This document shows, in pieces, positions 19,762-46,220 of a stretch of DNA of 64,000 nt. Where the stretch lies: assembly GCA_963765495.1 (NCBI GenBank), contig CAVXWP010000009.1:1-64000 (forward strand). Direction: 5' to 3'. Source of the stretch: Blastocatellia bacterium. GTDB taxonomy: Bacteria > Acidobacteriota > Blastocatellia > UBA7656. The first letter of the stretch is position 1. Every line of letters begins with the position of its first letter. The notes beneath the pieces are model-generated. The model was not told where the DNA came from and made no database searches. It saw only the letters and a program-made list of their open reading frames with translations. The position numbers were made by a program, and so were the translations under genes.

Positions 19762-20800
19762 GGCTTTGTTGCGCAATTCGAGATGAAGATAGACTTCACC
19801 CAGACTTCGACCTCTTTTAGAATGCTACTGTGTCGGGCATCCCTAACTCGCTCATCCGATTCATCACCATGCACTTGATCCTTGCCTCCGTCATCTGTGT
19901 CTCCATCTTCCTACTGCTCATTCGCTCTCCTAATATCCCCTTCAGCCTGCCCATCTGTGTCTCTACCAAGCTCCTCTTGTGATACCCACTCTCTTTCTTC
20001 CACTCCTTCTCTCCTTTCTCTGCCTTCTCTCTTATCGCCAGGTTTCTTTCCCCCATATAATAATACTTGCTCTCGACTGCTCCCTTTCGCGGCGGGATCA
20101 ATGGCTTCGCTCCCTTCTTATAGATCGCCTTGTGACACTGGTTTGTATCATATGCTCCATCCCCATATATCCGACCTACTTCCCCTTCCGTTTCCTCTAT
20201 CAATCGAGGCATTACTCGCGGGTCAACAACTCCCTTGTCGGTCAACTCTACGGCTGTTATCTCCCACGTCTCTGTATCTACTGCTATGTGTAACTTCCTC
20301 CATTCTCGTCGTTTATCCTTCCCGTGTGTGCGAACTTTCCACTCCCCTTCTCCATAAATCTTGACTCCTGTTGAGTCTATTACAAGGTCCGCTATTGGCT
20401 TGCTTGTATCGCGCCTCAACCTTATCTCTAGCCCTGGGGCTCGCCTTGATACTCTACTGTAATCTGCAACGGGCAACTCTACTCCCATCAGCTTGAATAA
20501 TGAGCAGACGAATCCTTGAGTCTGGCGAAGCGGCAGATGGAAGACGGCCTTGATCGAGAGCATTGTTATGATAGCAGTGTCAGAATATCTCAATGGAGCG
20601 CCGGGGCGTGTTTGAGGAGAGCGGTGTAGCCACTGATCAAGGACATCTTGAGAGAGCCAGACTGTTAGACTACCACGATTACGAAGAGAGGAGTTATACT
20701 GTTTCCAGTTACGGGTGCGATAAGTGGGTTTGTTTTTCTTGGTCATAAAGAGATTATACAAACCCTCGCGCACCTGTTGCCATATTTACGCAACAAAGCC
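19762..20800 (-). mobile_element. IS5-family (IS903-like) element, copy 1
   Basis: Inverted repeats GGCTTTGTTGCG / CGCAACAAAGCC; ends 8 nt before an attC; no TSD seen. Confidence 0.9.
19817..20773 (-). CDS. IS5/IS903 transposase
   Basis: NWKQYN..L..RGSLTVW, IDSTGVK, WRKLH, DGAYD and YHKRSLVET motifs. Confidence 0.93.
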   Translation of the reverse strand: MREGLYNLFMTKKNKPTYRTRNWKQYNSSLRNRGSLTVWLSQDVLDQWLHRSPQTRPGAPLRYSDTAIITMLSIKAVFHLPLRQTQGFVCSLFKLMGVELPVADYSRVSRRAPGLEIRLRRDTSKPIADLVIDSTGVKIYGEGEWKVRTHGKDKRREWRKLHIAVDTETWEITAVELTDKGVVDPRVMPRLIEETEGEVGRIYGDGAYDTNQCHKAIYKKGAKPLIPPRKGAVESKYYYMGERNLAIREKAEKGEKEWKKESGYHKRSLVETQMGRLKGILGERMSSRKMETQMTEARIKCMVMNRMSELGMPDTVAF

Positions 20801-20808
20801 AAGGGCTT

Positions 20809-20894
20809 GCCTAACTGCTCATTCCAGCGGACGCGCTTGCCAACTTCTCGATTGCATCGGAGGCCACGGCGCGCCGCTGAACTCGTCGTTAGGC
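20809..20894 (+). repeat. attC site (IS110-A inserted at GTTAG^GC)
   Basis: Host-type attC; the R' box is regenerated because the IS starts with GC. Confidence 0.92.
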
Positions 20895-20959
20895 ATCCAT
20901 GAAGCAAGGCTTCTTCACGACGGATGAAAATGTCTGAGAGTTTATGTATCCTTCCTTCT

Positions 20960-21110
20960 GGTCATTGGCTGATAGGTCGTCGGGCCTTGGTGCCTTTAGC
21001 CCGGTCGTTAGTTTGACTTGGGGAGCCTTTTCAGGCATCACAACTTGTTGCTTCGAGCACGCATAGCAGTCTCTTTTGTTTTGAGGCTCCCCGCCAATGC
21101 CGAAAGGAGT
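20960..21110 (+). ncRNA. Putative bridge/seek RNA of IS110-A (approximate bounds)
   Basis: Guide-like segments GTCGTTAG (21004-11) and GAGCCT (21023-28) match the target; CATAGCAG (21062-69) and ATGCC (21097-101) match the element's own ends. Confidence 0.75.
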
Positions 21111-21116
21111 TCTATC

Positions 21117-22355
21117 ATGCAGATTCTTTACAACTCTTGCTGTGGTATTGATGTTCACGCTCGCACCGTTGTCGCCTGCCTCATCACTGACGGCAACAAA
21201 GAGGTTCGCACTTTCTCGACCATGACTGATGATTTGCTTGCCCTGCTCGACTGGCTCACTTCTCAAGGCTGCACTCACGTCGCTATTGAAAGTACTGGCG
21301 TTTACTGGAAGCCTGTTTTCAATATCCTCGAATCCTCCCTGGAGGTTATTTTGGTTAATGCCCGCCACGTCAAAGCTGTTCCTGGCAGAAAGACTGATGT
21401 TAAGGATTGTGAGTGGCTTGCTGACCTGCTTCGTCACGGTCTGCTTCGTCCCAGCTTTATCCCTCCTCCTCATATCCGTGAACTCAGGGATTTGACTCGC
21501 TACCGCCAGAGCCTTATCCGTGAGCAGACTGCTCTTGCCAATCGCATTCAGAAGTTGATTGAAAGCGCCAATATCAAGCTCGCTCAAGTCGCTAGTGATG
21601 CTTTGGGGGTTAGCGGCAGGCTGATGCTGAGAGCTTTGGCTGATGGTCAAACCGATGCTGACAAGATCAGCGACCTTGCTCGTCGGAGGATGAAGCGTAA
21701 GAAGGCTGACTTGAAGCGTGCTTTGCACGGTCGCCTCACTTCTGCCCAACGCTGGATTCTTAAAGAACTCCTCGATCAGTATGACTCGGTTGAATCCTCT
21801 ATTAAGAGGGTTGAAGAGAAGATCAGCCAGGAGGTCGAAACTTCCCCAGACCCTTTTGTTAAGCAAGCTGTTGAGCTTCTCGATTCTATTCCAGGAGTCG
21901 CAAAGACCTTAGCCCAGATCATTGTCTCTGAGATTGGAGTAGATATGAGCTGCTTCCCAACAGACAAGAATCTCTCAAGTTGGGCTTCGATCTGTCCCAG
22001 TAATAATCAATCGGCAGGAAAACGAAAGAGTGGAAGAACCCAAAAGGGCAATAGCTATCTAAAAGCAGCCCTTGTGCAGGCAGCCTGGGCAGCAACGCAT
22101 CAGAAGGATTGTTTCCTTGCAGCGAAGTACAAAAGGCTGGTCAAGAGAATGGGGAAGAAGAAGGCGCTGGTAGCAATAGCACATTCGATACTTGTGATTG
22201 TATATCACGTCTTAGAAGAGAGAGCCGGTTACAAAGAGTTGGGAGTAGATTATCTGGACAAAAGGAATGTAGAGAAGCAGCGGCGAAGATTAATCCGACA
22301 GCTTGAGGGGACGGGCTTGAGAGTAACTGTTGAAGAGGTCGAGCAAGCTGCCTGA
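21117..22355 (+). CDS. IS110 recombinase/transposase
   Basis: CCGIDVH, AIESTGVYW, KTDVKD and SIPGV...SAGK motifs. Confidence 0.95.
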   Translation: MQILYNSCCGIDVHARTVVACLITDGNKEVRTFSTMTDDLLALLDWLTSQGCTHVAIESTGVYWKPVFNILESSLEVILVNARHVKAVPGRKTDVKDCEWLADLLRHGLLRPSFIPPPHIRELRDLTRYRQSLIREQTALANRIQKLIESANIKLAQVASDALGVSGRLMLRALADGQTDADKISDLARRRMKRKKADLKRALHGRLTSAQRWILKELLDQYDSVESSIKRVEEKISQEVETSPDPFVKQAVELLDSIPGVAKTLAQIIVSEIGVDMSCFPTDKNLSSWASICPSNNQSAGKRKSGRTQKGNSYLKAALVQAAWAATHQKDCFLAAKYKRLVKRMGKKKALVAIAHSILVIVYHVLEERAGYKELGVDYLDKRNVEKQRRRLIRQLEGTGLRVTVEEVEQAA

Positions 22356-22457
22356 TCAACACCTACTCTTATTTTCATAGCAGGCTCTCGCTTTCGCAAT
22401 GATATAACTTGCCTTGATAAAAACTTCTTCCCCTATCATAATGCTGTTGAGGTCATT

Positions 22458-30082: not shown

Positions 30083-30167
30083 GCCTAACTGCTCATTCCA
30101 GCGGACGCGCATTCCAACGATTCATTATCCCTTTGCAACCAGCGCGCCGCTGAATTCGTCGTTAGGC
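30083..30167 (+). repeat. attC site (start of the IS110 stack)
   Basis: Host-type attC consensus. Confidence 0.92.
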
Positions 30168-30254
30168 ATCCATGAAGCAAGGCTTCTTCACATCGGATGA
30201 AAATAAGACACCCCGCTAATGAATTCAACAACTTAGCTCTTATTTTCATAGCAG
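30166..30254 (+). mobile_element. 89-bp ends-only IS110 mini-element with type A ends
   Basis: Left end GCATCCATGAAGCAAGGCTTCTTCAC and right end CTCTTATTTTCATAGCAG match IS110-A. Confidence 0.85.
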
Positions 30255-30565
30255 TTCATCATGAGCCTGCGGCTCACCTTCGAATGATGAAAATGTGTGA
30301 GAGCCATGATAGAATTTTGTATGTCGGTATGAAGGTCGAACGGTCCTTGGTGCTTCGAGCCTGTATAGCAGTTTGACCTGGGCATATTTCTGGTACCCCG
30401 AATTGTTGCCTTTGAGCACGTAGAGCAGACTCATGCTTATTAACCAATGCCCTACCGACAACCAGTTTGATGAAGCTGTGCAGAAGTAATATCGCACAGG
30501 CTCGGAGTTGTTTGTCTTCATCTACTCGTTATCAACATTTAGCACCCCTTTTATTTTCAGAGCAG
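30255..30565 (+). mobile_element. 311-bp non-autonomous IS110 element type B (bridge-RNA-like region, no recombinase)
   Basis: Four near-identical copies in the window; IS110-type ends; scaffold homologous to the non-coding ends of types A and C. Confidence 0.85.
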
Positions 30566-32055
30566 CCCGTCATGAAGCGAGGCTTCGCCACGAATGATGA
30601 AAATATGGGCGAGTTCGACTAAACTCTCTGTGGTCAGCGGCGTCAGATAAGGTCGTACAGCCTTGGTGCCTCAAGCCCGAATAGCAGCCTGACCTGAGAG
30701 CCTTTCTGGCACCACCAACTGTTGCTTCGAGCACGCATAGTAGACTCTTCATTAACAAGGCTCTCACGCCCTGGCCAGAAAGAGGTAGCTATGGAGATCA
30801 TCTATTCTTGTTGTTGCGGCCTCGATGTTCACGCCAAGACTGTTGTCGCTTGCCTCATTAAGCACGGCAAGAAAGAAGTCCGCACTTTCTCTACTATGAC
30901 CGATGACTTACTTCGTCTTTCGGATTGGCTCATAGCCGAAGGCTGCACGATTGCTGCAATAGAAAGCACGGGTGTTTACTGGAAGCCTGTCTTCAACATC
31001 CTTGAAGGCAACGTAGAAGTCTTGCTTGTCAATGCCCGCCACTACAAAGGTATTCCAGGCCGTAAGACCGATGTAAAAGATTGCGAATGGTTGGCCGATT
31101 TGCTGCGCCACGGTCTGTTAAAGCCCAGCTTCATTCCTCCGCTTGAGATAAGGGAGTTGAGAGAGTTGACACGCTATCGTCAGCAGTTGGTTAAAGAGAA
31201 TGCGACTATTGCCAATCGCATACAGAAGTTGATCGAGAGTGCCAACATCAAGCTCGGACAAGTCGCCACCGACGTCTTGGGAGTCAGTGGCAGGCAGATG
31301 TTGCGAGCACTGGCAGCAGGTGAGCGCGATGCCGAGAAGTTGAGTGAGTTTGCTCGCCGACGTATGCGAAGCAAGCGTCCCCAACTCAAACGTGCTCTTG
31401 AAGGCCGACTGACGAAATCTCAACGCTTTGTGCTGGGCGAGTTACTGACCCGATATGAAGAAGTAGAAGTTGCCGTCAAACGAGTCGAGCAACAGATTGA
31501 CGAGGAGGTGGGAGAGAGCGCCGACCCTTTTGTCTCTAAAGCCGTAGAACTGCTACAAACAATACCAGGGATAGGAGAGAGAGTGGCAGAAACAATAGTC
31601 TCAGAGATCGGAGTGGATATGGATCGCTTTCCGACAGACAGCCATATTTCGAGTTGGGCAGGGATGTGTCCGGGAAATAACGAATCGGCAGGCAAGCGGC
31701 GTAGCGGGAAGACGACGAAAGGGAATACCTATGTGCGGGAGGCGCTGGTACAAGCGGCGTGGGCAGCGAGTCATACAAAGCAGACATATCTGTCAGCGCA
31801 GTATAGAAGGCTAGCGAAGCGGCTGGGGAAGAAGAAGGCATTGGTGGCAGTCGGCCACACACTTTTGGTAATTGTTTATCATGTGATCGAACGACAGATG
31901 AGTTATAAAGAGTTGGGAGGAGATTACCTTGACAAACAGAATGTAGAGAGGCAAAGGAAGCGATTGATTGATCGGCTCGAAGCAACGGGATTGAAAGTCA
32001 CTGTTGAAGAGGTTCAACCTGCTGCGTGAGCCACATCCGGACATTTTCATAGTAG
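30566..32055 (+). mobile_element. IS110-family element type C
   Basis: Ends CCCGTCATGAAGCG...ATGAAAAT / ATTTTCATAGTAG; AG core at both junctions. Confidence 0.9.
30791..32029 (+). CDS. IS110 recombinase (paralog of the type A enzyme)
   Basis: CCGLDVH, AIESTGVYW, KTDVKD and TIPGI...SAGK motifs. Confidence 0.95.
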   Translation: MEIIYSCCCGLDVHAKTVVACLIKHGKKEVRTFSTMTDDLLRLSDWLIAEGCTIAAIESTGVYWKPVFNILEGNVEVLLVNARHYKGIPGRKTDVKDCEWLADLLRHGLLKPSFIPPLEIRELRELTRYRQQLVKENATIANRIQKLIESANIKLGQVATDVLGVSGRQMLRALAAGERDAEKLSEFARRRMRSKRPQLKRALEGRLTKSQRFVLGELLTRYEEVEVAVKRVEQQIDEEVGESADPFVSKAVELLQTIPGIGERVAETIVSEIGVDMDRFPTDSHISSWAGMCPGNNESAGKRRSGKTTKGNTYVREALVQAAWAASHTKQTYLSAQYRRLAKRLGKKKALVAVGHTLLVIVYHVIERQMSYKELGGDYLDKQNVERQRKRLIDRLEATGLKVTVEEVQPAA

Positions 32056-32826: not shown

Positions 32827-33326
<500 letters not shown>

Positions 33327-33399: not shown

Positions 33400-33484
33400 G
33401 CCTAACTGGTCGATCAACCGGACGCGCATTCCAACGTTTCGTGTTCCATCATCTACTGGCGCGCCCCTGAATTCGTCGTTAGCT
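33400..33484 (+). repeat. attC site (chimeric arms)
   Basis: GCCTAACTGGTCGATCAACCGG...CTGAATTCGTCGTTAG. Confidence 0.85.
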
Positions 33485-33629
33485 GTCATGACGCGAGGCG
33501 TCACCCTCGCTTATGAAAATGTGGTCGAGATGGGTTATGCTCTTTGAAGTCGTCGGCGTTGATCAGGTCGGGGCGTCTTGGTGCCAGCCAGCCCGTGCGT
33601 TAGCTTGACCCGAGAACCTTCCAGGCACC
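33483..33629 (+). mobile_element. Left end of IS110 type D, truncated by IS3
   Basis: CTGTCATGA...ATGAAAAT plus a target-loop scaffold with GCGTTAG and GAACCT. Confidence 0.75.
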
Positions 33630-33683
33630 TGGAGTTGACCTGGTTTAGTGGACAGGTCAACAATTTCCAGAAAGGAGTCCACG

Positions 33684-33983
33684 ATGCCAAAAACACACAA
33701 ACCTTACTCACAAGAATTTCGTCAATCAATGGTCGAACTCGTCCGCGCTGGTCGCTCTCCTAACCAGCTTGCAAAGGAGTTTGAGCCCTCTGCTCAAGTC
33801 ATCCGTAATTGGGTAAAGCAAGCCGATCTCGATCAGGGGCTGCGTGATGATGGGCTGACCACTTCCGACCGTGAGGAGTTGACTCGCTTGCGCCGCGAAA
33901 TCCGTCACCTTAAAGAAGAGCGCGAAATCCTAAAAAAAGCCGCGGCCTTCTTTGCTCGCGAAACAAACTCAATACCTCAGTGA
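33684..33983 (+). CDS. IS3 OrfA
   Basis: YSQEFR, HTH and LKEEREILKKAAAFF motifs. Confidence 0.9.
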   Translation: MPKTHKPYSQEFRQSMVELVRAGRSPNQLAKEFEPSAQVIRNWVKQADLDQGLRDDGLTTSDREELTRLRREIRHLKEEREILKKAAAFFARETNSIPQ

Positions 33984-34846
33984 TATTTGAGTTTGTCAGA
34001 GCAAATCAGGCAGAACATTCTATCTCAGCGATCTGTCGAGTCCTTGATGTCTCAAGATCAGGCTACTATGCCTGGCTCGCACGAAGCCCATCAAGGCGAC
34101 ACCTTGAGGATGTGGCCCTGAGTCAACGCATCACAGAAATTCATCAGATTTCAAGAGGCACATATGGGTCACCCCGGATACTGGAGGAACTAAAGGCTTG
34201 CGGCAAAGGATTAGGGAGAAAGCGTGTGGCTCGCTTGATGCAAGTGTGTGGGCTGGTTGGAGTAAGCCGTAGACCGTTTACAACAACAACTCAAAGAGAG
34301 AGATCAAAACGACCAGCCCCTGATCTGGTGAAAAGAGCGTTCAAGGCCGATTGTGCCAACAAACTCTGGGTGGCGGATATAACCTATATCGCGACCTGGG
34401 AAGGATTCCTATATTTGGCTGTAGTGATGGATGTATGGAGTCGAAAGATCGTAGGATGGTCAATGAAAAGGCATCTTAGAACTGAGTTGGTCCTTGAGGC
34501 GCTCGATAGTGCAGTAGCACAAAGAATGCCTCTAAAAGGAGTGATACATCACTCGGATCAAGGGAGTCAGTACACATCTCTAGGGTTTGGGAAGAGATGT
34601 CGAGAATTTGGAGTACGCCCCTCAATGGGAAGTGTGGGAGAAGGCTCGGACAATGCGATGTGCGAGAGTTTTTTCGCGACACTCGAATGCGAGTTACTGA
34701 ATCGAGAGAGATTCAAAACCGTAGAGGAGGCCAAAATGAAAGTCTTCGAATATATCGAAGGATGGTACAATACAAGGAGGAGGCATTCAGGGATAGAGTA
34801 CAAATCACCGATGGAGTATGAAAGGCTTCATCAAATGATTGCCTGA
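33980..34846 (+). CDS. IS3 OrfB DDE transposase
   Basis: WVADITY, HSDQGSQY and DNAMCESFFATLE motifs. Confidence 0.93.
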   Translation: MIFEFVRANQAEHSISAICRVLDVSRSGYYAWLARSPSRRHLEDVALSQRITEIHQISRGTYGSPRILEELKACGKGLGRKRVARLMQVCGLVGVSRRPFTTTTQRERSKRPAPDLVKRAFKADCANKLWVADITYIATWEGFLYLAVVMDVWSRKIVGWSMKRHLRTELVLEALDSAVAQRMPLKGVIHHSDQGSQYTSLGFGKRCREFGVRPSMGSVGEGSDNAMCESFFATLECELLNRERFKTVEEAKMKVFEYIEGWYNTRRRHSGIEYKSPMEYERLHQMIA

Positions 34847-34887: not shown

Positions 34888-35691
34888 GGCCCCGATGCAG
34901 GATGAAAACGGGCAGATGGTGGAGCGAACTAGAGGAACTCCGCAGGGGGAGTAGTCAGCCCGCTGCTTGCGAATCTGTTCCTACACTACGCGTTTGATGT
35001 CTGGGTAAGTCGCAACCTGCCGACTGTGCCGTTCTGCCGCTACGCCGATGATGGACTGCTGCACTGCAAGACTCGGAGGCAGGCGGAGTATGTCATAAAA
35101 GTCGTGGGGAGAAGGTTTCAAGAGTGTGGGTTAGAACTGCACCCTGAGAAATCGAAGATCGTATACTGCAAAGACATCAACCGCAGAGGCGACTATGACA
35201 ATATCTCGTTTGACTTTCTCGGCTATACATTTCGGCCACGCTCATCAAAGGACAAATATGGGCGACGGTACGTCAACTTCTCGCCAGCCGTGAGCAATTC
35301 GGCAAAGAAAGCGATGCGGCAGGAAATAAGAGGCTGGCACCTACAGCTGAAGAACGACAAGAGGCTGGAGGATCTGTCGAGGATGTTTGATCCGATATTG
35401 AGAGGGTGGGCGAGCTATTACGGCAAGTTCTACAAAAGCGGCATGAGGGGGATTTGGAATCACTTTGATATGTATCTCACACGATGGGTAATGCGCAAAT
35501 ACAAGAGGCTGGCCGGGCATCGGCGGAGGGCAAGCAAGGAGTTAGGCCGAATCGCGCGGGATAAGCCGAATCTGTTTGTACATTGGCGGCAAAGGGAAAT
35601 GCGAGCGGTTGGATGATGGAGCCGAATGAGGGGAGACCTTCACGTTCGGTTCTGAGAGGGGCCAGGGGAGAGACTCCCCTGGTCTACTCAC
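34888..35691 (+). mobile_element. Group II intron 3, 3' half (RT and X domains, no HNH), 5'-truncated
   Basis: GTPQG (frameshift in a G-run), SPLLANLFLHY, RYADD and FDFLGY motifs; ORF ends at 35616; domain V GAGCCGAATGAGGGGAGACCTTCACGTTCGGTTC; domain VI ends ...CTACTCAC. Confidence 0.88.
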
Positions 35692-36170
35692 CCCTACATT
35701 CGGTTGCTAGCCAACTGGATGTATCTGGTGGCGATTATCGATTGGCATTCGCGTTATGTCGTGAGTTGGGAACTCGATGACAGCCTGGAAGTGGATTTCG
35801 TCCTCTTGGCCGTCGAGCGGGCCTTGCGCCAAGCGAAGCCGGAAATCTTTAACTCCGATCAAGGGAGCCAGTTCACGAGCCAGGCGTACATCTCGCTGGT
35901 CGAAGGAGCCGGGGTGCGAATCAGTATGGACTCGAAAGGGCGAGCCTTTGACAACATCTTCACCGAGAGATTATGGCGAACCGTCAAATATGAAGACGTC
36001 TATATAAAAGGTTACACGTCGCCGCGCGAAACGCGGGTTGGAATAGGCAGCTATCTGGAGTTCTATAATGACAGGCGCGTGCATCAAGCCTTGGCTTATC
36101 GAACGCCAGCCGAAATCCACTTCGGGCTTTGAATTGAACAAGAACCATGTTTATAGCCGACTCAAATGAA
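35692..36170 (+). pseudogene. IS3 orfB 3' exon, right end deleted
   Basis: (T)YIRLLANWMYLVAIIDW...NSDQGSQF...DNIFTERLWRTVKYE; same element as 2304-2533. Confidence 0.85.
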
Positions 36171-36672: not shown

Positions 36673-37711
36673 GGCTTTGTTGCGTAAATATGGCAACAGG
36701 TGCGCGAGGGTTTGTATAATCTCTTTATGACCAAGAAAAACAAACCCACTTATCGCACCCGTAACTGGAAACAGTATAACTCCTCTCTTCGTAATCGTGG
36801 TAGTCTAACAGTCTGGCTCTCTCAAGATGTCCTTGATCAGTGGCTACACCGCTCTCCTCAAACACGCCCCGGCGCTCCATTGAGATATTCTGACACTGCT
36901 ATCATAACAATGCTCTCGATCAAGGCCGTCTTCCATCTGCCGCTTCGCCAGACTCAAGGATTCGTCTGCTCATTATTCAAGCTGATGGGAGTAGAGTTGC
37001 CCGTTGCAGATTACAGTAGAGTATCAAGGCGAGCCCCAGGGCTAGAGATAAGGTTGAGGCGCGATACAAGCAAGCCAATAGCGGACCTTGTAATAGACTC
37101 AACAGGAGTTAAGATTTACGGAGAAGGGGAGTGGAAAGTTCGCACACACGGGAAGGATAAACGACGAGAATGGAGGAAGTTACACATAGCAGTAGATACA
37201 GAGACGTGGGAGATAACAGCCGTAGAGTTGACCGACAAGGGAGTTGTTGACCCGCGAGTAATGCCTCGATTGATAGAGGAAACGGAAGGGGAAGTAGGTC
37301 GGATATATGGGGATGGAGCATATGATACAAACCAGTGTCACAAGGCGATCTATAAGAAGGGAGCGAAGCCATTGATCCCGCCGCGAAAGGGAGCAGTCGA
37401 GAGCAAGTATTATTATATGGGGGAAAGAAACCTGGCGATAAGAGAGAAGGCAGAGAAAGGAGAGAAGGAGTGGAAGAAAGAGAGTGGGTATCACAAGAGG
37501 AGCTTGGTAGAGACACAGATGGGCAGGCTGAAGGGGATATTAGGAGAGCGAATGAGCAGTAGGAAGATGGAGACACAAATAACGGAGGCAAGGATCAAGT
37601 GCATGGTGATGAATCGGATGAGCGAGTTAGGGATGCCCGACACAGTAGCATTCTAAAAGAGGTCGAAGTCTGGGTGAAGTCTATCTTCATCTCGAATTGC
37701 GCAACAAAGCC
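36673..37711 (+). mobile_element. IS5-family (IS903-like) element, copy 2
   Basis: Near-identical to 19762-20800; CTTGCT repeated at the flanks; 8 nt from an attC R'' box. Confidence 0.9.
36700..37656 (+). CDS. IS5/IS903 transposase
   Basis: Differs from copy 1 by one residue in the ORF track. Confidence 0.93.
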   Translation: MREGLYNLFMTKKNKPTYRTRNWKQYNSSLRNRGSLTVWLSQDVLDQWLHRSPQTRPGAPLRYSDTAIITMLSIKAVFHLPLRQTQGFVCSLFKLMGVELPVADYSRVSRRAPGLEIRLRRDTSKPIADLVIDSTGVKIYGEGEWKVRTHGKDKRREWRKLHIAVDTETWEITAVELTDKGVVDPRVMPRLIEETEGEVGRIYGDGAYDTNQCHKAIYKKGAKPLIPPRKGAVESKYYYMGERNLAIREKAEKGEKEWKKESGYHKRSLVETQMGRLKGILGERMSSRKMETQITEARIKCMVMNRMSELGMPDTVAF

Positions 37712-38961: not shown

Positions 38962-39272
38962 CTGCTCTGAAAATAAAAGGGGTGCTAAATGTTGATAACG
39001 AGTAGATGAAGACAAACAACTCCGAGCCTGTGCGATATTACTTCTGCACAGCTTCATCAAACTGGTTGTCGGTAGGGCATTGGTTAATAAGCATGAGTCT
39101 GCTCTACGTGCTCAAAGGCAACAATTCGGGGTACCAGAAATATGCCCAGGTCAAACTGCTATACAGGCTCGAAGCACCAAGGACCGTTCGACCTTCATAC
39201 CGACATACAAAATTCTATCATGGCTCTCACACATTTTCATCATTCGAAGGTGAGCCGCAGGCTCATGATGAA
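38962..39272 (-). mobile_element. IS110 non-autonomous type B, copy 2
   Basis: Same sequence as 30255-30565; abuts the right end of IS110-A copy 2. Confidence 0.87.
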
Positions 39273-41859
39273 CTGCTATGAAAATAAGAGTAGGTGTTGA
39301 TCAGGCAGCTTGCTCGACCTCTTCAACAGTTACTCTCAAGCCCGTCCCCTCAAGCTGTCGGATTAATCTTCGCCGCTGCTTCTCTACATTCCTTTTGTCC
39401 AGATAATCTACTCCCAACTCTTTGTAACCGGCTCTCTCTTCTAAGACGTGATATACAATCACAAGTATCGAATGTGCTATTGCTACCAGCGCCTTCTTCT
39501 TCCCCATTCTCTTGACCAGCCTTTTGTACTTCGCTGCAAGGAAACAATCCTTCTGATGCTTGCTGCCCAGGCTGCCTGCACAAGGGCTGCTTTTAGATAG
39601 CTATTGCCCTTTTGGGTTCTTCCACTCTTTCGTTTTCCTGCCGATTGATTATTACTGGGACAGATCGAAGCCCAACTTGAGAGATTCTTGTCTGTTGGGA
39701 AGCAGCTCATATCTACTCCAATCTCAGAGACAATGATCTGGGCTAAGGTCTTTGCGACTCCTGGAATAGAATCGAGAAGCTCAACAGCTTGCTTAACAAA
39801 AGGGTCTGGGGAAGTTTCGACCTCCTGGCTGATCTTCTCTTCAACCCTCTTAATAGAGGATTCAACCGAGTCATACTGATCGAGGAGTTCTTTAAGAATC
39901 CAGCGTTGGGCAGAAGTGAGGCGACCGTGCAAAGCACGCTTCAAGTCAGCCTTCTTACGCTTCATCCTCCGACGAGCAAGGTCGCTGATCTTGTCAGCAT
40001 CGGTTTGACCATCAGCCAAAGCTCTCAGCATCAGCCTGCCGCTAACCCCCAAAGCATCACTAGCGACTTGAGCGAGCTTGATATTGGCGCTTTCAATCAA
40101 CTTCTGAATGCGATTGGCAAGAGCAGTCTGCTCACGGATAAGGCTCTGGCGGTAGCGAGTCAAATCCCTGAGTTCACGGATATGAGGAGGAGGGATAAAG
40201 CTGGGACGAAGCAGACCGTGACGAAGCAGGTCAGCAAGCCACTCACAATCCTTAACATCAGTCTTTCTGCCAGGAACAGCTTTGACGTGGCGGGCATTAA
40301 CCAAAATAACCTCCAGGGAGGATTCGAGGATATTGAAAACAGGCTTCCAGTAAACGCCAGTACTTTCAATAGCGACGTGAGTGCAGCCTTGAGAAGTGAG
40401 CCAGTCGAGCAATAATAGAATTAGATAGTTTTTTGTTTGTTGTGTTGGTGTTTTTTTTTTGTTTTTTTGTGTGTTGGTGTGTTTGGTTTTTTTTGAAGTT
40501 GATATTTAGTTGTTGTTGTTTTATGGATAGGAGTAGAATATAGATGATTTTATGTTTAGATGGATGTTTATGATATATGTTGTGTGTAAAAAAATATTGG
40601 TTGATTTTTTATGTTGAGTGAGTAGGATTGATTTAAGTAAGGATTGTGAGATGTGTTGGTAGTAGGTTGAGTTATTTGATATTAGTGAGTAAGTTTTTAT
40701 TATAAGTTGTTTTAGTTATAGTGAGGAGATGTTATAAGTATGGATTGATGATATTATATAAAGTTATTATTTTACGTTTTGTGGTGTATTAGTGTTTGTT
40801 TAGTGGGAGTATTATGAAGTTTGTTGATATTTTGTGATGTTATATGTGTGAAGGGAATAAAAGTGATATATTTGGTTTTAATTTGAGTTGTTGTGATTTA
40901 GTGTATGTTTATATTGTATTTGTTGTGAGGTTTGTTTATTATGATTGTAAATTAAGTTTGGGGTATTGATATACTTATATCTGATTTGTGGTGTGTGGAT
41001 GTATTGGTAGTATTGTTGGATTGTTATTAGTGTTATATATTGAGTTGGGAATTGGATTAGAGTTTGGAGTATTTTTTCGTGATGGTAGTATTAGAATAGG
41101 TGTTTGTTAAAGTTTGTTTAGGAATTTGGAACTCTGATTAGGGGAGTTACTTCACTAGTTTGTAATATATATATCGACTGAAAATGGTTGGGTTGTAAAT
41201 CAGTATGGATGGTAAAGGTTGTGTTTTGGATAACATCTTTACGTAGTGTTTATGGAGAAGTATCAAGTATGAAGAGGTCTATCTGTATTCTTATGTTTCA
41301 CGAAGAGAAGCTCGACAAAACATTACTAGGTATATGTGATTCTATAATGAAGAGCGTCTACATCAGTCACTCGATTACTGGACACCGGTTGAAGTCGTAT
41401 TTCAGTTGTGAGAATGAGAAACATCAGCGAAACGATTCTATAATGAAAGGAGAAAAGTCCACTTTAGGCATAGGTAATTTTTTGTCTTGATTTTGTGGAC
41501 CACCTTAAGGGCAAGCAAATCATCAGTCATGGTCGAGAAAGTGCGAACCTCTTTGTTGCCGTCAGTGATGAGGCAGGCGACAACGGTGCGAGCGTGAACA
41601 TCAATACCACAGCAAGAGTTGTAAAGAATCTGCATGATAGAACTCCTTTCGGCATTGGCGGGGAGCCTCAAAACAAAAGAGACTGCTATGCGTGCTCGAA
41701 GCAACAAGTTGTGATGCCTGAAAAGGCTCCCCAAGTCAAACTAACGACCGGGCTAAAGGCACCAAGGCCCGACGACCTATCAGCCAATGACCAGAAGGAA
41801 GGATACATAAACTCTCAGACATTTTCATCCGTCGTGAAGAAGCCTTGCTTCATGGATGC
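39273..41859 (-). mobile_element. IS110 type A, copy 2, interrupted by an IS3 insertion
   Basis: Matches copy 1 apart from the 40412-41507 insert and a frameshift near 39557; inserted at an attC GTTAG^GC. Confidence 0.9.
40412..41507 (+). mobile_element. IS3-family element with a corrupted, C-depleted sequence
   Basis: Right end TTGTCTTGATTTTGTGGACCACCTTA; relics of the QVWGIDITY, NSDQG, SMDGKG..DNIF and KYEEVY coding motifs. Confidence 0.7.
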
Positions 41860-46133: not shown

Positions 46134-46220
46134 CTGCTCTGAAAATAATCGCCTAAGTTATTGATTCTACAAGAATCGCTTATTTTCGTCGTTCGTGGCG
46201 AAGCGACCCCTTCATGACGG
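46134..46220 (-). mobile_element. 87-bp ends-only IS110 mini-element
   Basis: Reverse complement CCGTCATGAAGG...ACGAAAATAAG...TTATTTTCAGAGCAG, directly after an attC GTTAG. Confidence 0.8.

Follow-up and report, generated by a model that had tools for sequence, protein, structure and literature searches.

An IS110-type insertion sequence, probably RNA-guided, at the R' end of integron attC sites in a Blastocatellia bacterium

The first 64 kb of contig C9 (CAVXWP010000009.1) in the genome assembly of a Blastocatellia bacterium (GCA_963765495.1; 7.3 Mb, 17 contigs), a stretch here called the window, are filled by a large integron-type cassette array in which an insertion sequence (IS), designated IS-A, sits at the 3' end of attC recombination sites. 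Taken as a whole, the observations are best explained if IS-A is an RNA-guided element of the IS110 type that inserts at the core dinucleotide AG within the R' box of attC, and we estimate the probability of this explanation at about 0.8. To our knowledge, insertion sequences that hunt for attC sites have so far come only from the IS1111 branch, and these are thought to disable or fuse cassettes. The present case would add a variation from the IS110 branch, with the guide RNA encoded upstream of the transposase gene, insertion at the opposite end of attC and exactly at the cassette boundary, and an R' site that is intact on paper.

The integron nature of the locus follows from co-oriented imperfect palindromes of the form RYYYAAC...GTTRRRY and from the presence of integron integrases in the genome. 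A search with nhmmer, using a profile made from 12 repeats of the array, gave 30 attC sites, 26 on the plus strand between 4398 and 33482 and four on the minus strand, and their consensus in the window reads GCCTAAC...GTCGTTAGGC. The motif GTCGTTAGGC occurs 14 times exactly, and 24 times if one mismatch is allowed as compared to 2.36 expected occurrences; it is the array's own R' end and not a chance motif. Natural variants of R' among the attCs of the array are GTTAGAC, GTTATGC and GTTAGAT, and the sequence 3' of R' varies as well. The genome has three intact intI genes scoring above the TIGR02249 cut-off, all on contigs other than C9, and since the array runs past the start of its contig, its own integrase cannot be assigned. 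The IntI integrase crosses over between G and TT of the R' box.

In the copy from which the analysis started (copy 1, Table 1), IS-A directly follows GTCGTTAG at 20885-20892. The four bases AGGC are present at both ends, so that the position of the cuts is ambiguous from the letters alone. AGGC occurs just once at a paralogous site on contig C2 that lacks the element (attC end at 564109, same cassette start at 564108). In three places where another element adjoins IS-A the junction reads CATAGCAG/TTCATC, without GC, and when IS-A (GC...CAG) and a small element called C-mini are taken out of the gene that they interrupt on contig C16, a single AG remains and the frame stays open across the site (...KLLSLG/PVNWHLW...). 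Because of the empty site, the junctions and the restored frame, IS-A can be delimited as GCATCC...CATAGCAG with AG as core. The end at 22390 proposed in the initial annotation is 7 bases too far; the junctions and the C16 frame put it at 22383. The last two bases (20893-94) of the occupied attC belong to IS-A.

Assignment to the IS110 family is based on the transposase, which matches PF01548 (DEDD_Tnp_IS110; E 1e-34) and PF02371 (Transposase_20; 8e-21) and reaches 311 bits, against a cut-off of 140, with NCBIfam NF033542 ('IS110 family RNA-guided transposase'). Matches in the PDB are distant (IS621, E 6.5e-15; ISCro4, 3.8e-12). Within the family, elements of the IS110 type have the longer of their two non-coding regions upstream of the transposase gene, according to PMC11187229 and PMC11208160, and IS-A has 224 nt upstream and a right end of only 28 non-coding nt downstream of this gene.

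Genome-wide, IS-A is present as five full copies that are 99.9-100% identical, and as an 89-bp miniature. Within the window the motif GTCGTTAGGC followed by ATCCATGAAG marks three insertions, at 20885-20894 (+), 30158-30167 (+) and 41867-41858 (-), each of which closes an attC of the form GCCTAAC...GTTAGGC that lies on the strand of the IS, with the cassette open reading frames and the transposase gene co-oriented. The earlier proposal that both full copies and the miniature share one position in R' and the orientation of the array thus held at all 3 of these 3 sites. Two of the three full copies outside the window are in attCs as well, and the third is in an ordinary gene. Sorted by left flank, four copies follow GTCGTTAG in an attC, one follows GGTTGTTAG in an attC of a different type in the same register, and one follows CTCGTTAG in the gene that is not an attC. 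The product of this gene (C16:238286-241785) is a winged-helix regulator to which TolB-like repeats are fused, and IS-A and C-mini are inserted in the gene at CTCGTTAG/GTCC, a target outside the array that matches the left-target guide described below at 7 of 8 positions. Judged by its sequence, IS-A is a recently active element, since the five copies are 99.9-100% identical and stand before five different sequences.

The guides were recognized by comparing elements. A profile of the left ends of IS-A and its sibling IS-B was used with 79 related loci from other genomes, and the same left end was present upstream of the transposase in 47 of these, mainly in Acidobacteriota and other soil or sediment metagenome-assembled genomes. 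In the alignment, a conserved GCCCG is followed by eight bases that vary by element yet match the bases preceding the left end of each element. The anchor of this guide was detected in 36 of 51 sources, and in 27 of the 36 (22 distinct elements) the last six guide bases recur directly at the left end; for the remaining nine, either the anchor was misplaced or the sequence covered contained no match. A left-donor guide was found in a similar way: its last six bases, which served as search key, close a right end of the TTT(T)C type in 20 of 24 rows from relatives, with a match of the full 8-mer in most of these 20 (four rows have 7/8) and nine different 8-mers represented. AG closes both guides in IS-A and, with the exceptions of L081 (AA) and L017 (AC), in the aligned relatives. 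As in a bridge RNA of the IS621 kind, the left end thus carries guides for left target plus core and for left donor plus core, which covary with the flanks and the right ends, respectively. The four guide segments read in the initial annotation thus fared differently: those at 21004-11 and 21062-69 are confirmed by covariation, that at 21023-28 is plausible only, and that at 21097-101 does not exceed chance.

The RNA structure points in the same direction. Across 23 sequences, four helices have 86% of their cells paired, against 28-48% in slid controls, and the covariation score is 0.175 as compared to 0.132 in shuffled alignments, none of which (0/500) scored as high. Immediately before the target guide lies a hairpin that is paired in 100% of cases and shows compensatory changes at two pairs. 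A GGUGCC/GGCACC stem that was favoured at first was dropped for this hairpin; the first consensus fold and an RNAalifold run each recovered part of the structure. An Rfam scan of the window returned no family for the left end of IS-A, only three group II intron matches elsewhere.

Some findings are at odds with a straightforward bridge RNA in IS-A. A scan of the left end for sigma-70-like promoters found none. The candidate right-target guide GAGCCT fits the IS-A right flanks GCTCTC and GCTCCC (6/6) and GCGCGT (5/6), and it fits the flank of IS-B too, but the motif is conserved in relatives regardless of flank, so that no covariation was seen among them; one relative even has five copies with the same left flank and five different right flanks. 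This guide is therefore no more than plausible on sequence grounds. For a right-donor guide 3' of the donor guide, the best complement to an element's own tip averaged 4.05 of 6 positions against 4.12 after permutation (22 elements), and a search of the whole left end gave no consistent 5-mer and nothing above permutation. The RNA may work somewhat differently from that of IS621, the right-hand guides being undetectable by covariation. Finally, the left-target guide has a 2-nt extension that, in 20 of the 22 distinct elements compared, is identical to the two bases with which the element itself begins, and so appears to read the left junction as it exists after insertion. The two exceptions are L016, with one match out of two, and IS-A itself, which alone has none (UU versus GC).

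By analogy with IS621, the junction of an excised circle (...CATAGC-AG-GCATCC...) would recombine with a target such as GTCGTT-AG-GCTC at the shared AG, directed by the RNA. The guide GUCGUUAG would specify the 3' end of attC through the AG within GTTAGGC, and the guide CAUAGCAG the element's own right end. Recombination at AG would then set the IS between GTTAG and GC in a single orientation, sense to the cassettes. The mirror-image R'' box reads GCAGTTAG on the bottom strand and matches six of the eight guide bases, whereas all observed sites match seven or eight, which may explain why R' is used rather than R''.

The evidence further indicates that the target is chosen by its sequence and not by the attC hairpin, since one copy lies outside attC, an attC of another type was hit in register, and relatives with unrelated guides occur in unrelated places. 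Recognition of the folded hairpin by the transposase, as by IntI and group IIC-attC introns, would make the guide match incidental; it would account for the attC location of 5 of the 6 insertions, but we regard it as highly improbable in view of the C16 insertion, the entry into GGTTGTTAG in the same register, and the covariation of guide and left flank in relatives whose targets have nothing to do with attC. It could also be argued that a single insertion was spread by cassette duplication or IntI shuffling rather than by repeated guided transposition. Paralogous cassettes and attCs across contigs indicate that segmental copying does occur. Yet the neighbours on both sides differ for every copy of IS-A, the IS copies are at least 99.9% identical whereas flanking paralogues are 95-97% identical, and one copy is in a non-integron gene at a 7/8 guide match, so this course of events is very unlikely. 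The same DEDD transposase superfamily and the shared attC target might suggest that IS-A is an ordinary IS1111-attC element in its usual position. The IS1111-attC group (ISPa21, ISPst6, ISKpn4, ISPa25) was reportedly established in papers by Tetu and Holmes in 2008 and by Post and Hall in 2009. With IS-A it has in common a DEDD transposase (IS110 family in ISfinder), insertion into attC that is specific for site and orientation, selection of the target by an RNA encoded by the element, and the possibility of several elements per chromosomal array. PMC11187229 places the seekRNA of IS1111-attC elements downstream of the transposase gene, whereas IS-A has its guides upstream and only 28 nt downstream. 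In the same source, the subterminal repeats of IS1111 elements measure about 11-13 bp, and the terminal extensions beyond them 7 bp (left) and 3 bp (right), as compared to the 8-bp repeats ATGAAAAT and ATTTTCAT of IS-A, which are separated from the left and right ends by 31 and 5 nt, respectively. PMC3001079, a secondary source, locates IS1111-attC elements close to the 5' end of attC, in antisense to the cassettes, while IS-A follows GTTAG of the R' box at the 3' end, has the orientation of the cassettes and leaves the attC module whole. The question raised earlier, whether position and orientation are those of described attC-targeting elements, can on this comparison be answered in the negative for both, and membership of the IS1111-attC group has hardly any likelihood left.

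Several other systems invite comparison. The bridge recombinases of IS621 and the IS110 group, as presented in PMC11208160 and PMC11208158, likewise have a structured RNA in the left end and separate left-target and left-donor guides ending in a 2-nt core, and insertion is presumed to proceed through a circular intermediate. They differ in core (CT versus AG) and in the size of the transposase (326-341 versus 412 aa), to which that of IS-A is only distantly related, and the right-half guides that they possess are undetectable by covariation in the IS-A family. The geometry also departs from the handshake guides described in PMC11208158, with a 2-nt 3' extension that reads the element's first two bases. 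Group IIC-attC introns, as summarized in PMC3001079, home to attC sites too, but are retroelements with ribozyme-based recognition that insert antisense near the 5' end of attC. ISEc21 (PMC11187229) and IS4321/IS5075 (PMC5034289) target other mobile elements, as IS-B and C-mini target IS-A-type right ends; the targets published for ISEc21 and IS4321/IS5075 are transposase genes of IS3 or terminal repeats of Tn21 rather than the end of an IS110-type sibling. A full-text literature search returned no description of an IS110-type element with an upstream guide aimed at the R' end of attC.

What insertion means for the attC and its cassette can be approached from the geometry. Because IS-A starts with GC, its first two bases complete R' and restore GTTAGGC, as had been noted from the sequence; the 7-bp R-box stem can then form as well. 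The complete R''-L''-L'-R' module is present in IS-A-occupied attCs, and predicted single-stranded DNA folds of two of these share the 7-bp R box, spacer and L stem with two empty ones, whereas an attC occupied by sibling D, which starts with CT, is predicted to form an R box of 5-6 bp only. The upstream attC is thus probably still usable after insertion. IS-A begins five bases 3' of the G/TT crossover, and since it is located 3' of this point, it would formally be the first part of the next cassette, a statement about geometry only. The earlier suggestion that the IS becomes cargo of the downstream cassette is therefore upheld as far as topology goes, but its corollary of joint movement found no support.

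One can envisage a joint reading in which an IS110 lineage became compatible with integrons: a single change of the tip, from CC to GC, restores R', IntI moves the IS along with the next cassette, and sibling and miniature elements, with target guides retuned to the right end of the first arrival, form trains behind it. If true, this would provide a second, integrase-driven route of IS spread, but we consider it doubtful, and a number of results count against it. None of the five attC-resident copies shares a downstream cassette with another (0/5), and neither the same unit of IS and cassette behind different attCs nor a circular cassette, which would reveal co-mobilization, was found. This comparison has low power, as IS copies differ by at most 0.1% and paralogous cassettes by 3-5%; the IS copies are thus far younger, and IntI has had little time to act on them. 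Public contigs aligned to the region contained no excised or circular form of IS-A, which is weak evidence as only contigs were covered. Rebuilding of R' is also not a family trait. Beside GTTAG, sibling D starts with CT, a miniature at 46220 with CC and C-mini with TT; L016 and L027, which are in attCs of other genomes, start with CC, as do L005, L015 and L026, while L082 starts with TC and L042 with TT. A pattern scan of metagenomes gave at least 117 stretches, and among those listed eight had the left end of the family, the rest being chance matches; in this small sample the first bases beside GTTAG were CC five times and AT, TC and CG once each. A GC start is thus found in IS-A only, one of about 18 lineages beside GTTAG (about 17 others), which is close to the chance rate of 1 in 16 each and need not be adaptive. 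Moreover, the last bases of R' may matter little, given the natural attCs with GTTAGAC, GTTATGC and GTTAGAT.

The opposite outcome, in which insertion inactivates the attC, has to be considered as well. IntI could need contacts or pairing past R', or the IS could interfere, so that cassettes become fused and the restored GTTAGGC is coincidental. In line with this, IS-A-occupied sites bear no trace of IntI activity, the family shows no enrichment of R' rebuilding, and the guide extension suggests that the GC of IS-A is odd and perhaps a recent change. PMC11616780 reports fused cassette calls around ISPa21, and states that experimental evidence on how such elements affect integrons is limited. 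On the other hand, the full R''-L''-L'-R' module folds as in empty sites, and since the sequence past R' naturally varies between attCs of the array, IntI presumably cannot require it. We therefore regard inactivation as unlikely, though by no means negligible. PMC12506996 mentions clinical class 1 arrays that differ in that ISPa21e and the aac(6')-Ib4 cassette next to it are missing together, a hint that even IS1111-attC elements are perhaps lost or moved with a neighbouring cassette.

Continued use of IS-A-occupied sites by IntI, if it occurs, would couple an RNA-guided transposon to an integron: cassette traffic could carry the IS along, and arrays could tolerate it. In any case, IS-A is a clean example, open to experimental testing, of an RNA-guided IS linked to integron sites, and the locus provides a natural series for such work, with elements at the same site starting with GC, CC, CT or TT, guides reprogrammed from attC to the end of a sibling, and a 2-nt extension that would read the tip.

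The reprogrammed guides are those of C-mini (TATAGCAG) and IS-B (AATAGCAG), which match the right ends of siblings (CATAGCAG and CAGAGCAG) and not attC. Elements guided in this way to IS-A-type right ends would stack behind IS-A-type elements, and chains of this kind are present: attC, miniature, C-mini and IS-B at 30166-32055; attC, IS-A and C-mini at 41859-38962; and attC, miniature and two C-minis at 46220-45509. Five of the six C-mini copies abut the right end of a sibling. The sixth directly abuts an attC, an arrangement that precise excision of an upstream element would yield. A quick transposase tree with midpoint root (48 rows, being 46 loci with a full-length start plus IS-A and IS-B; truncated loci excluded, relatives from genome contigs only) places IS-A in a well-supported clade of 13 rows with repeated retargeting of guides. 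Guides that end in GTTAG are neither clustered nor monophyletic on this tree; they require six changes, and 138 of 500 shuffles gave a number as low.

Table 1 Features of IS-A, its target attC and related elements in the window
Feature	Position	Strand	Description and basis
attC site	20809..20894	+	R'' GCCTAAC 20809-15; R' GTTAGGC 20888-94; nhmmer E 2.2e-24; bottom-strand fold with 7-bp R box
Core dinucleotide AG, left copy, crossover site	20891..20892	+	Right copy 22382-83; guide ends and junctions
IS-A copy 1, IS110-type, 1,491 bp	20893..22383	+	GCATCC...TTTTCATAGCAG; empty-site paralogue
Non-coding left end, 224 nt, putatively coding a bridge-type guide RNA	20893..21116	+	Profile matches 47 related loci; helices
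Left subterminal inverted repeat ATGAAAAT	20924..20931	+	Partner ATTTTCAT 22371-78; kept in relatives
Left-target guide GTCGTTAG, 8 nt	21004..21011	+	Equals attC bases through core AG; covaries with left flank
2-nt extension of left-target guide, TT	21012..21013	+	Position compared across relatives
Candidate right-target guide GAGCCT	21023..21028	+	Reverse complement of AG+GCTC
Left-donor guide CATAGCAG	21062..21069	+	Equals last 8 bases of IS-A right end; follows GCACG
Right-donor guide ATGCC of the initial annotation	21097..21101	+	Unsupported
Transposase gene, 412 aa, DEDD	21117..22355	+	Pfam, NCBIfam and IS621 matches
Miniature with IS-A-type ends, 89 bp	30166..30254	+	Same attC position
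C-mini, 311-bp non-autonomous IS110-type element	30255..30565	+	At right end of the IS-A-type miniature
IS-B, about 72% nucleotide identity to IS-A	30566..32055	+	At right end of C-mini; right flank GCTTGC
Sibling D, left-end remnant	33483..33640	+	Directly after GTCGTTAG of attC 33400-33482; starts with CT
C-mini	38962..39272	-	Abuts right end of IS-A copy 2
IS-A copy 2	39273..41859	-	In attC 41942-41858

IS-A copy 2 is dead due to an insert of 1,096 bp (40412-41507) and a 1-nt deletion. The insert resembles the orfB region of an IS3-family element on contig C2 (553887-554578; 74.7% identity), and 130 of the 175 differences are changes from C to T on the plus strand and 18 are lost C residues, which leaves about 700 nt nearly free of C. 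This loss of C reflects either C-to-T hypermutation of one strand or an artefact of long-read sequencing. At about 33640, an IS3-like element whose two open reading frames overlap cuts sibling D short (region 33483-34846).

The array region also contains two copies of an IS5-like DDE transposase gene (PF13737 and PF01609) at 19817-20773 (-) and 36700-37656 (+), both of which stop about 35 nt short of the R'' end of an attC. Over 400 nt that comprise the IS5-like end and the attC, the pair is 94.8% identical, and one of the two attCs is occupied by IS-A while the other is empty. The group II intron matches in Rfam concern domains V/VI on the plus strand (1131-1231, 2227-2303 and 35617-35692). 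A homopolymer run of 497 A residues at 32828-33324, the sole homopolymer of at least 60 nt in the genome, is probably an assembly artefact.

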